Positions 14,173-19,602 of a stretch of 64,000 bases of DNA are shown here, one piece after another. This DNA comes from an uncultured Planctomycetaceae bacterium (GTDB taxonomy: Bacteria; Planctomycetota; Planctomycetia; Planctomycetales; Planctomycetaceae). The translations under genes were made by a program, and so were the position numbers. The notes below the pieces were generated by a model. That model was not told the DNA's origin and made no database searches. It saw only the letters and a list, made by a program, of their open reading frames with translations. The DNA lies in the NCBI GenBank assembly GCA_963813715.1, contig CAWFAK010000005.1, forward strand, positions 704,001-768,000, written 5' to 3'. Numbering within the stretch: position 1 is the stretch's first letter; each line of letters opens with the position of its first letter.

Positions 14173-14412
14173 ATGAGACGCGGAGGCGGGAAAACGCTTT
14201 GGAAGGGCCTAGTCACCCGGGTGGCGATCCTCGCGCTCGTGGTGTTCGTGTTGCAGGTTTTGAAGATGCTGGCCGGGCCGCCGAATGTGCGCGTCCAGCC
14301 GCGCAAGCCGGCCGTCCAACCGCAGAATGCTCCGGCTCCGATGCGGCCCGGTTTCGACCGCGACCTGACTAAGACCGGGTCGGCGACACCGACGGGCTTG
14401 CCGCGGACGTAG
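14173..14412 (+). CDS. small single-TM hypothetical protein, possibly leaderless
   Basis: Hydrophobic stretch VAILALVVFVLQVL; TAGAAT at 14161-14166 just before the ATG; 3' end overlaps the convergent gene. Confidence 0.45.
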   Translation: MRRGGGKTLWKGLVTRVAILALVVFVLQVLKMLAGPPNVRVQPRKPAVQPQNAPAPMRPGFDRDLTKTGSATPTGLPRT

Positions 14413-16248
14413 ACGACGGGACGTCCGATTTCGCTGCGGAACCGCCGGCTGAGGCGGTGCGAGTCGACTCTTTATGTGACGCCGCTTCCGGCTGTCCCAA
14501 TTTGTGGCGGAGCACTTCGATCCCCGCGGCCTTGAACTGCAGCTGGGCGCCAGCCGACACGCGGCCCAGCGTGGCCAGTTTTGTCGGCACCGCCGTGAAC
14601 GAGCTGCGGTAGGCGGCGATCATCTGCACCGTGCGCGGCGTATCGACCAGGTAATCGGCGGCCGTAATGATGATCTGCGATCCGTCGTCGAGCGTCAGCA
14701 CGGGGACGCCGATGAAGATGGCCCGCACCAACGGCTGCGTGTGGCGAAGGTCGACGATCAGCTGCAGCTCGCGAATCGAGGCCAGGGCTTCGCACTCGTT
14801 GTGCGTGTCGGCCGCGCCGTCGACCAGCGAGGCCAGGTTCTCGATGCCGATCAACATCTTCAGGTAGTAGACGAAGGCCATCCGTTGCGTCGTCGTGTAG
14901 CTCTGCGAGGCGAAGAACCGCGTGCGGCTGGCTTCGGGAACGCCCAGGTCGATCAGGTCCCGGTCGAGGTCAGCCTGGATTTCGAGCGTCGAGCGGTGCT
15001 CCATCATCTTCTTGAATTCGGTGTTGGCCGGCAGAAAGCCGAGGCCGGGCAGCCCGAAGTTGAGACCGACTTCCACGGTCAGCCAGCCGCCGCCGGCGTT
15101 GATCGACATTTCGTCGAGCAGGCAGCTGAGGGGCTCGTTGCGCGTTTCCGGATCGCAGCCCACCAGGCACGCCAGCCGTCGCCGCGGTTCGCAGTTCGCT
15201 TTGCAGCCGCCGGGCATCTTTTTGGCGAGGGCCCAACGCTTGAGCGCCTGGGCCGTCCGCTTGACCGAGCCGATCGGGTCGGTGGCGAAGATGTAGGCTC
15301 CCTGCGGTGTGTGGCAGATCGCCTCGGCGAATCCCTCCGAGAACATCGGATTCTTGTCGGCGATGCGTGACGCGTATTCGAGTGCGCACAACTCGCGGAG
15401 GCGGACGTCGAGCATGGCCATGCCGTGGGCGGGAATCGTCCCCCAGGGCGTTTCGATCTCGAAGCGAAAGTTGTAATCGACGAGCGGCGTGTATTCGGCA
15501 AGGCGGTAGTACTTGCCGCGGAGCAGATCCGGACGCACGATGTCGCGCGTGCGATACACGAGCGACGCCGGAATCGGCTTCAGGGCTTCGTCGGCGACCT
15601 TCGCGTCTTTCCCGGGCTCTGGGCTCTTCTCTTTTTCGTCCGACATCCGCAAGCGTGGCGGACCGGGGTTCGGCGGCGGCCCGGAGCCATCGGGGACGGG
15701 CGTGGGCGAATCGGGCAGCGGAGTGCCGTCCGGGTTGAGCACGGGAGAATCGGGGAACGCTGATCCGCCCGGCCCAGGACCGAAACCCGGACCAGCACCG
15801 GGGAATGGCATTGCTGGTGCCGTCGGATTGGTGCTGGTCGGATTGCCACTGGGTGGCGATCCCGGGACTTGAGGCACCGGCAGCAGCGGAATCACTGGGG
15901 GCGCGGACGAGTTCGTTGGTGCCGCGGGGAATGGTGTCGTCGGCACGGGGGTCATCGGCAACGGCGGAGTGGAAATCATCCGCATCGACGGGCCGCCCGG
16001 CGCCGGTGGGCCGAGTTGGGGGCTGTCAGTCGGGCGTCAGTCTGTGGGACGCCGGGGAGCGGTGGCAGCGCCGCGGGAACGCTGAGCACAGGACCGGCGG
16101 GTGCTGGCAGTGCCGACGCAGGGGCGGGAGGCGGACCGAGGATCGGTTCTTCGTCTGCCGAAAGCGTCGCAGCCGAGAGCGCAACGGCACTCAACACCGT
16201 CGTCCAGAGCGGCTTGGAGAGCGCAGCCCGCAGCGTCCCGCGTGTCAT
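14369..16248 (-). CDS. secreted hypothetical protein with long Pro-rich N-terminal region (indels at about 15990-16040)
   Basis: Signal peptide (...LSAVALSAATLSA-DEEP) in ORF 15976..16290 continues into Pro-rich and then globular sequence in ORF 14369..15985. Confidence 0.7.
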
Positions 16249-16510: not shown

Positions 16511-17555
16511 TTACTTCCAGTAAACCTGCACGACCCAAACAATGACGAAGATTGGGACGAAAAAGCTCAAGAGAAACTGGTCGAAGGGGAAGCTGTTGAA
16601 GATCGAGCTGCCCGACCCCCAGGGAATGAGCCGCCCCTTGAGGATGAACTGATCGATCATCACCGAGCCGACGGCGCCCCAGCACATGATGATGTAGCCC
16701 ATCTGCGTCCGCTCGTGCTGTTCTTCGGGTGACAGCTTATCGAAGCGGACCCGCCTTTTCTGCCCCTTGGTCCGCGCCTGGGATGCCGATCGCTTTTTGC
16801 TCACTTCTTCCGCCGCCGACTCGTCCCGCGCCGGGGGCGTAGTACTTGGCGATGCCCTGGTTGATGGCCAGGGGCGTGGCGATCACGGGTCGCATCGGCA
16901 CATCGAACCGCAGGCGGATCTCGTCTTCCAGCTCTTGGTCGGGCTCGTTGACGCAGGCGACCAGCAGCGTTTCATCGTCGAGGAAAAGCGGCAGAATCGA
17001 GTGCCGCTTGACCGTGGCGCGGGGCACTTTGTCGAGCACCGAGTCGTCCGGAGTGACGTCGGCCAGATCGATATAAGAGCGGCCGAGTTCTTCCGCCAGC
17101 GCCTGGGCGGCCGTGTTCGCGTCGGTGAGCTTCATCTGCACGACTGCGTCACGCAAGGTCAGGCCGCGGGCCTCGGCGAATTCTTCGGCTTGCTTGACCT
17201 GCACGTCCGTCAGCACGCCGCGATCTTCCAAGATACGGCCCAGCGTCCGCGGACCGGAGGAGCCCCCTTCGTCTTTGAAGACTCGCCCGAGACTTTCGTC
17301 GTACTCGCGCTTGGCGGCCGGATCGGTGAGGCAGAGCATGGCCTTGGCCAGCTCGTTGAGCAGCTCTTGCGAGCGGACCGAGTACTGTCCCGAGGCGTAT
17401 TTCCGAACGTGCCCGTTGAGCTTTTTGTAGTTGCCGCGGATCTTGTCAGTGCTGTCTTCGAACTTAACGAGCCGCAGCAACTCGTAATGGTTGGGGGGCC
17501 GCGGTCCGTCGGGGATCCCCAGCCATTCCTTATAGACGTCGAGAGTCGTCGTCAT
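16511..17555 (-). CDS. membrane-anchored protein: N-terminal J-domain-like module lacking HPD + MshEN/T2SSE_N-like domain + two C-terminal TM helices (joined across indel at about 16830)
   Basis: NHYELL...KIRGNYKKL...ELLNELAKAMLCLTDPAAKREYD aligns by eye to J-domain helices I-IV. LGRILEDRGVLT...YIDL...VPRATVKRHSILPL...LVAC...MRPVIAT resembles the GspE/PilB N-terminal domain. ORF 16511..16804 supplies the TM tail. Confidence 0.75.
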
Positions 17556-17615
17556 AGGTGAGCCCACGCAGCGTTGGCCACGGGCGAAACTGCGGCGAGG
17601 GATCCATCCTTGGGG

Positions 17616-19193
17616 CTATTCGACGTGATAGTCTCGCGCGATCGCTTGGAACGAATCCACACCTTTGGCGTCCAATCCCTGGCTGCGGATGATCTCGATG
17701 TTGGCGGCTTTCTTTCCGGTCAGGTCGACCGCCGTGCACTGGATGCGGCCGCTGTTGTCGTAGCTGTAGGTCACGTCGACCGGTGAGCCGGCCGGCAGCC
17801 CCGCAGGCAGGCCGACGATCTGAAACTCGGCAATCTGCGTGCAGGCTTCCGGATCGGCGACTTCGCCCTCGAGCACGTAGACGTGCACGCGCTGCTGGTT
17901 AGGCGTCGTGGTGACGAACCGTTGCGTCGCCTCGTAGGGGATGGCCGTATTCCGCGGAATCATAATGTGATTGCTCTTGCGGCTCGGATTCATCGGGTCG
18001 GTGATCTTGACCCCCAGCGAGTGCGAATTGACGTCCGTCGTGTTGACCGAACGCAGCCGGTCGACCACGGCCTTGCCCAGTCGGCCGCGGCCGCCCGTTT
18101 CCTTCGCTTCGAGGATGGCGGCGTGAATGGCAGCCCCCTGGGCGACGGCTTCCTCGGGGATCAGGTCCCGCGAGGGCGAACGCTTGCACACTTCTTTGAG
18201 CATTTGCTCGACGACGGGCATGTAGGTCGAGCCGCCCGCCATGATCACGTCGTCCAGCTCGCGCGGGTCGACCTTCGCCTGTTGCAGCACGAGTTCGCTC
18301 GTGTCCTTGGTCCGCTGCAGGAGGTCGGCCGTCATCCGCTCGAAGTCGCTGCGGGTCATGGAGACGGTGAGGGTCTTGCCTTTGTAATACAGGCTGATCG
18401 GCACCTGAGACCGCTGGCTCAGCTGCCGCTTGGCGTCTTCGCACTCCTGGATGAAGGACCGCAGGGTCTCGGGGTTTTCGCGGGGATCCTCAGCGAACTT
18501 GCGTTTGAACTGCTCGCAGACGTGGTCGACGATCCGCTGCGTCCAGTCCAAACCGCCCAGCATGACGTCGCCGTCGGTGGCCAGCACGCGGAAGTTCGTG
18601 GGCGTATAGCGGACGACCGTCACGTCGAACGTGCCGCCCCCCAGGTCATACACCAGGATGGTCTTTTCCTTGGCTTTGAGGTCGCCGCGCCCGAGTTCTC
18701 CCTTGGTCCAGGCGTAAGCAAGGGTAGCGGCCGTCGGCTCATTCAGGATGTCGACGACGTTCAGACCGGCGATCTGGCCGGCATCCTGCGTCGCCTTTCG
18801 GCGAATATCGTTGAAGTAATACGGGACGGTGATCACGGCGTTGGCGATCGCTCCAATCCGCTTTTCGCAGTCCTGCTTGAGCTTCTTCATGATCAAAGCG
18901 GAGATAAATTCGGGCGTCAGCCGCTTGTTCTGGTAGACGATGTAAAAGTCCTTGTTCCCCATCTGCCGCTTGATGGCCTCGACGATGTGGGACGGATCTT
19001 CGATCGAAATTCGTTCAAACGAAGGGCCGACAAGCACATGGCCGTCCTCTCCCAGGAGCACCACCGAGGGCGTAATTGGCTTGTCGTCCGCGTTGTGGAT
19101 CGTCACCGGCTGGCCCTCGACATTGACTTGGGCCAGTGCCGAATACGTGGTCCCCAGGTCGATGCCGATCGTGTTGCCTTCGAGGAACGCCAT
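17616..19193 (-). CDS. atypical Hsp70-family protein (DnaK paralog, no C-terminal lid)
   Basis: GIDLGTTYS, AVITVPYYF, NEPTAA, VYDLGGGTFDVT, LGGLDW, GGSTYMP and AVAQGAAI; about 525 aa, ending shortly after the substrate-binding beta domain. Confidence 0.92.
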   Translation of the reverse strand: MAFLEGNTIGIDLGTTYSALAQVNVEGQPVTIHNADDKPITPSVVLLGEDGHVLVGPSFERISIEDPSHIVEAIKRQMGNKDFYIVYQNKRLTPEFISALIMKKLKQDCEKRIGAIANAVITVPYYFNDIRRKATQDAGQIAGLNVVDILNEPTAATLAYAWTKGELGRGDLKAKEKTILVYDLGGGTFDVTVVRYTPTNFRVLATDGDVMLGGLDWTQRIVDHVCEQFKRKFAEDPRENPETLRSFIQECEDAKRQLSQRSQVPISLYYKGKTLTVSMTRSDFERMTADLLQRTKDTSELVLQQAKVDPRELDDVIMAGGSTYMPVVEQMLKEVCKRSPSRDLIPEEAVAQGAAIHAAILEAKETGGRGRLGKAVVDRLRSVNTTDVNSHSLGVKITDPMNPSRKSNHIMIPRNTAIPYEATQRFVTTTPNQQRVHVYVLEGEVADPEACTQIAEFQIVGLPAGLPAGSPVDVTYSYDNSGRIQCTAVDLTGKKAANIEIIRSQGLDAKGVDSFQAIARDYHVE

Positions 19194-19602
19194 GATTGAT
19201 TGTGCTTTCAAGAGGGAAGCGACGGGAATATGTCTGATTCTGACAGTGGCCTAGAGTGGAATCAAGCGCCTGATCAGGGCGGAGGCCGAACCCCGCGGCG
19301 TACGTTAACTGCGGCCGAAATTGGCTGCGAACGGCCAATCCGCGAGGCGTTTCTCGTGTCGCGAACCTCCGCGAACGTCTGGCCGTCGAGTTCGCGCCGT
19401 GCGGCCGTCACCGATCGAGTGGTCGCTCCACCAAGGTGTACTTTCCGCTCGGACGAGCGCTATAATGAATGTCCCACCACTGTAGCGCCGCCGCGCCGGA
19501 GTTGGAACGGACGTTCAGGTTGCGCGGTCCCGCCACGCTGCAAATTACTGCTCAAGTGCTTTTCGACGTTTGCGCTTCAGCGCTGGTGATGAGACTTCCG
19601 CG

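Follow-up and report, generated by a model that had tools for sequence, protein, structure and literature searches.

Two adjacent genes on the minus strand of a 64,000-nucleotide stretch of DNA from an uncultured soil bacterium of the Planctomycetaceae (GenBank assembly GCA_963813715.1, contig CAWFAK010000005.1, positions 704,001 to 768,000; hereafter, the window) form a conserved, co-inherited unit. The first encodes a paralogue of the chaperone Hsp70 that has no helical lid, and the second encodes a protein that combines a J-like domain, an MshEN-like domain, and a hydrophobic C-terminal tail. We think it probable that together they make up a dedicated and private chaperone module, tethered to the membrane, in which the J-like protein engages its Hsp70 through an interface that does not depend on the canonical His-Pro-Asp (HPD) motif. 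The genes lie head to tail and are co-oriented, with the Hsp70 of 525 amino acids (aa) first (17616..19193, minus strand). An alternative TTG start at 19211, which would lengthen the Hsp70, is unlikely because its orthologues begin at the same place as the ATG-initiated protein, with MKFLEG. Between the Hsp70 stop codon and the ATG of the partner at 17555 lies an intergenic spacer of 60 nucleotides (nt; 17556..17615, minus strand), which shrinks to 48 nt if the partner begins at a GTG at 17567. The initial annotation of this DNA had described two co-oriented genes about 60 nt apart, and this layout was correct.

Conservation of the gene pair

The two genes are inherited together. Relatives of the partner are encoded in 357 of 366 candidate stretches from species-representative genomes. 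Among the best 80 loci, those that carry titles all belong to Planctomycetaceae-type organisms or metagenome-assembled genomes, save for a few oddly labelled bins, and in 77 of the 80 an Hsp70 gene lies directly upstream on the same strand. This amounts to 77 of 78 testable loci: two (L078 and L084) have less than 200 nt of upstream sequence, and in a third (L073) a peptidase M3 gene occupies the position. The expectation that the pair would prove syntenic across planctomycete genomes was therefore borne out. The Hsp70 orthologues are 62 to 98% identical to that of the window (tblastn pieces of at least 300 residues) and the partners are 50 to 97% identical, and both genes appear to be under purifying selection.

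An even sample of 401 Planctomycetota genomes gave the same picture. The J-like domain occurred in 48 of these genomes, and 26 contained a DNA motif for Hsp70s that carry Asp at the position of R167 in Escherichia coli DnaK. All 20 genomes from the window's own family had the pair, and every one of the 22 orthologous J-like hits was situated 1.1 to 1.6 kb from the Asp-167 motif. The motif itself was rejected as a marker of the clade. It also matched distant proteins with an Hsp70-like nucleotide-binding domain (NBD) in three genomes of family f14, which had no J-like neighbor within 14-kb stretches, and it misses lidless Hsp70s with Gly, Ser, or Ala at position 167.

A lidless Hsp70 with an altered J-domain interface

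The first gene encodes a member of the Hsp70 superfamily (Pfam HSP70, PF00012; E = 1.5e-119, 400 bits versus a cut-off of 20.6). It scores well below the NCBIfam model for DnaK (389 bits versus a cut-off of 648) and also falls below the HscA cut-off. To map its residues, we aligned the protein to DnaK, HscA, and HscC of E. coli along with the genome's own DnaK, and a second mapping was obtained from an HMMER alignment to DnaK of Mycobacterium tuberculosis. The protein reads GLNVVDILNEPT, and in the alignments to both E. coli and M. tuberculosis DnaK its Asp148 occupies the position of R167. Its interdomain linker is SVNTTDV, compared with DVLLLDV in DnaK, such that L390 to L392 are replaced by Asn-Thr-Thr. 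Only 19 residues follow the position of DnaK residue 507, versus 131 to 145 in the DnaKs that were examined, and the helical lid is therefore absent. All three deviations had been read from the sequence by the initial annotation, and the two mappings agree on them.

As had been proposed, the ATPase motifs are kept, with D12, K75, E152, D183, T188, and D190 aligning with the catalytic residues D8, K70, E171, D194, T199, and D201 of DnaK. The equivalents of the allosteric residues R151, D148, P143, N170, and T173 are retained, as is that of P419. In the beta-sandwich part of the substrate-binding domain (SBD-beta), the pocket residues F426, Q433, and V436 are conserved, and Thr replaces both arch residues, M404 and A429. 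With its catalytic and pocket residues in place, the protein would seem to be a functional ATPase equipped with a beta-basket, one in which the lid is gone and the interface with the J domain and the linker appears to have been rebuilt.

The changes fall where J domains make contact. According to the account of the DnaK-DnaJ complex in a 2021 review by Mayer (PMC8215388), D35 of the DnaJ HPD motif bonds with R167 and Q378 of DnaK, H33 bonds with the carbonyl of L391, and P34 contacts P419; the same source assigns a role in steering the J domain to E206, D211, E217, and D477. In the window's Hsp70, Q378 is replaced by H357, E206 by R195, and E217 by R202; D211 falls within a four-residue deletion; D477 and D481 are both Ser; and N13 and K155 are Tyr and Gln, respectively. 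By alignment, then, the protein is altered at both D35 contacts, at the acidic docking residues, and in the linker. A canonical DnaK can be ruled out from the model score, Asp148, H357, the SVNTTD linker, and the missing lid. The substitution at position 148 is also a property of the group, with Asp found in 65 of 66 extracted orthologous Hsp70s.

We also considered whether the protein might be a member of the HscC family. We built a maximum-likelihood tree with 24 Hsp70 sequences, taken from the window, from five related genomes, and from E. coli. In it, all 14 Asp-167 Hsp70s fell on one side of a branch with support of 100/100. E. coli HscC grouped with an HscC-like planctomycete protein (100/100) on the opposite side, along with DnaK and HscA. 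Because the clades are separate and each has full support, the window's Hsp70 is not an HscC, and its residues lead to the same exclusion. The tree is small and its group is defined by the residue in question, which means that it shows clustering of the trait and no more. The HscC-like planctomycete protein (locus L101, G223:C43) has 583 aa, R167, Q378, and the linker IVMTD, and its presence in G223 indicates that a true HscC and the lidless clade coexist in one genome.

The source genome encodes a second lidless Hsp70 on another contig (G000:C8:629837-631918; locus L094:4838-6919). It too has Asp at position 167, along with a polar linker (KVKQQS), and it carries a C-terminal extension of 168 residues that includes a Cys-rich CxxC...CxxC stretch. 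Relatives of this second protein that read NEPVAA were found in 9 of the 22 pair-bearing genomes (20 from the same family, the source genome G000, and G330).

A J-like, MshEN-like partner

The partner begins with a J-like domain (residues 1 to 100; 17256..17555, minus strand) that Pfam DnaJ (PF00226) recognizes below its cut-off (residues 26 to 90; E = 0.014, 16 bits versus 27.8). An AlphaFold2 (AF2) model of these residues, built with 68 sequences, had a pLDDT of 87.4; in it, four helices that correspond to J helices I to IV come after an additional helix at the N terminus. When the model was compared to the Protein Data Bank (PDB) with Foldseek, no match reached an E value of 0.001 or lower, and every row listed was a J domain or a chain containing one. 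The same was true of all 50 rows returned by VIA-align, in which the best match was a Plasmodium J domain (Z = 9.7, root mean square deviation [rmsd] of 1.9 Å over 68 aligned residues) and DnaJ's J domain in its complex with DnaK (5nro_B) scored Z = 8.0 (rmsd of 1.8 Å, 62 aligned), with the caveat that Z scores below about 13 may be commonplace among helical bundles. Given a list composed exclusively of J domains, the weak Pfam hit, and a LTDP..KR.YD signature, it is reasonable to read the N terminus as adopting a J fold that is homologous to J domains. The J fold that had been proposed for this region was thus recovered by structure prediction.

What the domain does not have is the HPD motif. 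Its loop reads HVRKYASGQ, and depending on the offset in the VIA-align superpositions, the place of HPD is taken by R51-K52-Y53 or K52-Y53-A54. The initial annotation had read this loop as free of HPD, and the family agrees: the pattern HV[RK][KR]Y[AQ][ST]G was found in 71 of 71 extracted orthologues, none of which has HPD. Among 199 J-like domain sequences, HP[DE] appeared three times and never at the canonical loop position (once five residues past it and twice outside the loop).

Behind the J-like domain is a clear homologue of MshEN (approximately residues 105 to 247; 16815..17243, minus strand), also known as T2SSE_N or GSPII (PF05157; E = 9.3e-18, 64.4 bits versus a cut-off of 23.1), with sequence matches in the PDB to the N-terminal domains of PilF, PilB, and MshE. 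Since the MshEN domains of MshE, PilF, and NfrB bind c-di-GMP, as described in PMC5013675, one could imagine that the module is controlled by this second messenger, with the MshEN-like domain sensing c-di-GMP and switching the chaperone. We regard this as very improbable. The 24-residue c-di-GMP motif, as defined in PMC5013675 (Wang et al.), was found in neither its strict nor its relaxed form in any of 72 family members. The NCBIfam c-di-GMP_motif model scores 17.4 bits versus a cut-off of 38, and family alignment A1 shows other residues in place of the two glycines of the second motif and no conservation of RLG in the first. Without the motif, and with a model score so far below the cut-off, the domain is unlikely to sense c-di-GMP.

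The protein would end in a membrane anchor. The C-terminal tail (16511..16804, minus strand) consists of a basic linker and, behind it, two hydrophobic segments at approximately 16640-16702 and 16517-16594. Hydropathy peaks at residues 288-289 and 322-330 of the intact partner, for which AF2 predicts tail helices at 277-304 and 329-347. The putative topology is that of a 348-aa protein anchored at its C terminus.

A frame break in the partner gene

The initial annotation had treated the partner as a single gene with J-like, MshEN, and transmembrane parts. The domains and the tail are indeed present, yet they do not form one open frame in the window, a detail that had been missed. A stop at 16737 ends the J/MshEN frame, and the tail has its open reading frame (ORF) in a different one. 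A database protein of 348 aa (P0002) is identical to the window product up to ...YYAPGA and then continues with RDESAAEEVSKK... into the tail, where its C terminus is identical to the window's tail ORF. DNA alignment to locus L006, which differs from the window at 66 of 1068 aligned bases, located a deficit of 2 nt (GC/CG) within a short GC repeat (16826..16832, minus strand), where GC is missing in the run CCCCCGGCGCG(CG)GGAC. All 17 aligned relatives of the partner are in frame and have 335 to 358 aa.

Public sequencing data point in the same direction. In four of four runs (three of soil DNA and one of rhizosphere RNA), contigs had a CG inserted behind position 16826, and one such contig from run X1, 218 nt in length, was otherwise identical to the window. 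Two other X1 contigs (2 and 3) end at 16831, short of the site, and are silent either way. The contigs come from other samples or strains and do not constitute proof for the source genome itself. Because all four runs carry the missing CG, the frame break is most likely an assembly error at the GC repeat or a rare variant, and the gene as it exists in the organism probably specifies a single protein of 348 aa in which the J-like, MshEN, and membrane-tail parts are joined. In a different assembly, a database protein with 92% identity (P0008) has a shift at the same GC repeat plus another indel, which suggests that the site is prone to error or slippage.

Predicted docking of the pair

We predicted a complex between the J-like domain (residues 1 to 100) and the Hsp70 with alignments that we built ourselves, using three runs and three controls. 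The median ipSAE across runs was 0.69, compared with 0.00 for the best control. Among solved complexes, 116 of 157 scored at least 0.69, as did 2 of 215 mismatched pairs; the calibration is only rough because author-built alignments were used. The runs shared at least 88% of their contacts, and the pLDDT of the partner was at least 85. Complex modeling of the pair, which the initial annotation had envisaged, therefore supports binding without showing it.

In the model, the confident interface on the partner comprises helix II (residues 44 and 47-48), the loop (51-60), and helix III (63, 66-67, 70-71, and 73-74). On the Hsp70, it includes Y126 and N128 (Y145 and N147 in DnaK), residues 209-212, the helix 289-301, H391 just past the linker, and the SBD-beta loop 442-452. 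Family alignments A1 and A2 show many of the interface residues to be invariant. Taken together, the predicted contacts suggest a docking site near that of canonical J domains which is held by different contacts.

The model also bears on the charge swap that the initial annotation had put forward as a possibility. In a strict version of it, the contact between R167 of DnaK and D35 of DnaJ would be inverted, with D148 of the Hsp70 facing R51 or K52 of the partner and this exchange alone providing specificity. The ingredients are there: Asp148 is nearly fixed in the orthologue group (65 of 66), R51 is almost invariant, K52 is invariant in A1, and R167 is, with Q378, one of the D35 contacts described in PMC8215388. 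In the predicted complex, however, R51 sits against D209 and D297, and residue 148 has no part in the confident interface. Nor was there covariation between position 167 and the J-like loop. Among 21 distinct further Hsp70/J-like pairs, position 167 could be read in 18, where it was Gly in seven, Ser in seven, Asp in two, Ala in one, and Arg in one, and their loops, of the type [SN][PTS][KR][HD]K, were similarly basic throughout. In genome G400, an Asp-167 Hsp70 is even flanked by J-like genes with LHPDP loops. The patterns at 167 and in the loop follow subfamilies, possibly through mere co-inheritance, and a residue-for-residue swap is not shown. We consider a strict charge swap improbable, and this part of the original proposal was not supported. 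Its broader claim, that the canonical Hsp70/J interface has changed on each of its two sides, is upheld by the residue mapping.

A different question is whether the pair goes through a catalytic cycle at all. The J-like protein may instead be a stable scaffold that permanently anchors the lidless Hsp70 at the membrane, where the Hsp70 would have a holdase function or would assist DnaK in the manner of Hsp110, as a nucleotide-exchange factor or co-chaperone. By analogy, zuotin holding the lidless Ssz1 in the ribosome-associated complex (RAC) and Pam16 as a nonstimulating J-like subunit could be models for such an arrangement. The missing lid, the polar linker, and the loss of HPD would all fit, as would a predicted interface that leans on helix III rather than on the HPD position. 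Furthermore, a 2026 review in FEBS J proposes that DnaK derivatives with altered linkers have lost activation by J-domain proteins (JDPs) and may act as co-chaperones of DnaK (PMC13580251). A permanent scaffold does not readily explain why all of the catalytic residues of the ATPase have been kept together with the equivalents of R151, D148, P143, N170, and T173, why SBD-beta retains F426, Q433, and V436, or why the loop HV[RK][KR]Y..G is conserved like a functional motif in 71 of 71 partners. Overall, we judge the scaffold to be rather unlikely.

For the private, membrane-tethered module that we favor, the following mechanism can be envisaged. The hydrophobic C-terminal tail of the intact 348-aa partner would fix it in the cytoplasmic membrane, with the J-fold domain and the MshEN-like protein-binding domain facing the cytoplasm. 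Where the NBD, linker, and SBD-beta of the lidless Hsp70 meet, the J-like domain would dock by way of a remodelled interface that does not depend on HPD. Docking would bring the ATPase to the membrane and to whatever client the MshEN-like domain holds, and would probably also regulate ATPase activity. The pair would be expected to be insulated from the DnaK/DnaJ/GrpE system of the cell because the Hsp70 does not have the DnaJ-contact residues and the partner does not have HPD. Such insulation is plausible since other loci in the genome supply a canonical DnaK, GrpE, and two J proteins with HPD.

A wider family of J-like genes

The J-like domain belongs to a large family, with 7834 clusters at 50% identity (E <= 0.001). 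Among the 57 non-orthologous J-like hits from the 401-genome sample, 24 were within 3 kb of a lidless Hsp70 gene on the same strand, nearly always with the Hsp70 first, and 30 had no Hsp70 within 4.5 kb; two were at contig ends and could not be tested, and one was not recovered. Pairing with a lidless Hsp70 thus applies to 24 of 54 testable genes, which are spread over several other families of Planctomycetota. The adjacent Hsp70s share a lid that is absent or replaced, a non-LLL linker followed by VNSHSLG, and His, Trp, or Tyr at the position of Q378. Their J-like neighbors have varied C-terminal parts behind the membrane segment, for example FGE-sulfatase domains and WD40 propellers.

Several gene arrangements stood out in this set. 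At locus L135 (487-3006; G092:C176), the N terminus of a lidless Asp-167 Hsp70 carries a fused Ser/Thr protein kinase domain, and a J-like gene follows 28 nt downstream. At locus L089 (G400:C533), an Asp-167 lidless Hsp70 is located between two J-like membrane proteins with FGE-sulfatase domains and loops of the type LHPDP[ED]. In these loops the HPD tripeptide is no more than one residue from its canonical place, and Pfam DnaJ misses both proteins. Finally, locus L162 (G190:C3:446300-458200) contains four consecutive J-like genes on the same strand; in genome G190 as a whole, PF00012 recovers DnaK and, beyond it, just two weak NBD-like matches.

In the source genome itself, a large network of J-like proteins was sought and rejected, as six-frame translation yielded only two J-like domains. 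The other one belongs to a protein on contig C8 (G000:C8:244370-245539; locus L093:4371-5540) that carries GYF_2 at its N terminus and has a hydrophobic segment behind its J-like domain. Within 5 kb of this gene there is no Hsp70, and the second lidless Hsp70 is not adjacent to it.

We tentatively raise the possibility that the Planctomycetota have a fourth lineage of bacterial Hsp70s beside DnaK, HscA, and HscC, defined jointly by the absence of a lid, a polar linker, the signature VNSHSLG, and replacement of R167 and Q378, and driven by a large J-fold adaptor family of its own, whose members are free of HPD and mostly anchored in the membrane. If so, there would be a way of coupling the J fold to the Hsp70 ATPase that does not require HPD, and the window pair, which is present in every sampled genome of its family, would be the most conserved member.

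A number of observations weigh against a private, HPD-independent module. Pam16/Tim16, which are HPD-less J-like proteins, are not known to stimulate Hsp70. Binding is predicted from a model in which neither residue 148 nor the linker (383-387) is among the confident contacts, and the score may reflect likeness to the solved DnaK/J complex 5NRO. The partner is frameshifted in the window, and if the break were real, this copy would be without its anchor. The 30 of 54 testable J-like genes with no Hsp70 inside 4.5 kb must also be reckoned with, as must genome G190 (99% complete), which has at least four J-like genes, some in tandem, and no lidless Hsp70 detectable by PF00012. From the last two, it follows that the J-like domain is not strictly dependent on a lidless Hsp70. 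Association between the two is frequent, not obligatory.

Genomic setting and transcription

Only the pair itself is conserved, given how rare its neighbors are across the best 80 loci. A wider conserved operon was considered and dismissed: a 538-aa protein adjoins the pair in 9 of the 80, a TIM-barrel-like protein in 11, an MMPL-like protein in 3, and upstream genes in 1 or 2. In the window, the 538-aa protein is encoded downstream of the pair (14369-15985, minus strand) and has a proline-rich N terminus; neither it nor the 97-aa tail ORF had a match in Pfam or NCBIfam.

As stated in the initial annotation, dnaJ, grpE, and hrcA are not adjacent. The genes dnaJ and grpE are absent from the window (C5:704001-768000), and those of the same genome are found at C5:654459, C18:37115, and C18:35581. 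HrcA was not found in the source genome, which is 82.6% complete.

A promoter and terminator scan returned no promoter-like sites and two terminator-like sites on the plus strand, against 3.0 expected; no terminator-like site was detected on the minus strand in the spacer between Hsp70 and partner. Among 24 public sequencing runs listed, 20 contain part of the stretch, and 6 of the 20 are recorded as RNA. One of these, a rhizosphere metatranscriptome, has contigs over 28 of 30 bins, both genes included, and one contig (17199-18248; X9 record 29) bridges the spacer. This contig is compatible with co-transcription of the pair, with carry-over of DNA remaining a possible source.

Comparison with known systems

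The HPD motif is treated as indispensable for the action of J domains. Here, a strongly conserved pair has a J fold with a different, invariant loop in its place. Nature has thus supplied a test case for two questions: which features a J fold requires to act on an Hsp70, and how a cell that contains two Hsp70 systems keeps them orthogonal. Our literature search found no description of a planctomycete lidless Hsp70 with a J-like partner. The present analysis contributes the frameshift, a tree of the clade, a broader set of pairs, and a negative result on covariation.

Ssz1-zuotin in the RAC brings together a lidless Hsp70, an altered linker, and a partner with a J fold, and Pam16 of the Pam16-Pam18 pair is a J fold without HPD. 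Ssz1 binds an N-terminal segment of zuotin, not its J domain. Both systems are eukaryotic, and they are compared with the window pair at the level of families. Another private pair is HscA/HscB, which is independent of GrpE and has its co-chaperone encoded next to the Hsp70. HscB carries HPD and is soluble, and HscA, unlike the window's Hsp70, retains Arg and Gln at the D35 contacts, an LLLD linker, and the lid.

The closest system described is HscC (Hsc62) with its partners DjlB and DjlC, as far as PMC8215388 covers them. As in the window, a specialized Hsp70 paralogue is found next to a dedicated J partner that is anchored to the membrane at its C terminus, alongside DnaK in the same cell. 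The two Hsp70s also share a deletion in lobe I of the NBD (DnaK 76-101) and an insertion in loop L1,2 of SBD-beta (PMC8215388). However, in HscC both R167 and Q378 persist, the linker (EVILTD) is hydrophobic, and a lid is present in shortened form (83 residues past 507), and DjlC and DjlB keep HPD or HPE, whereas the window partner does not.

Large surveys of JDPs drop sequences without HPD (PMC10410713). On the Hsp70 side, comparable proteins are the "DnaK derivates" of Myxococcus and Anaeromyxobacter, which have shortened or absent lids and strongly modified linkers, and whose function is called open in the source (FEBS J 2026, PMC13580251), where RAC and HspA14 are also mentioned. The comparison is by description: like the window's Hsp70, these are paralogues derived from DnaK in which the lid is reduced or absent and the linker is modified. 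They differ in that the available part of that paper reports no dedicated J-like partner gene for them (PMC13580251). For one class of these proteins, the gene pair described here provides a partner that can be tested.

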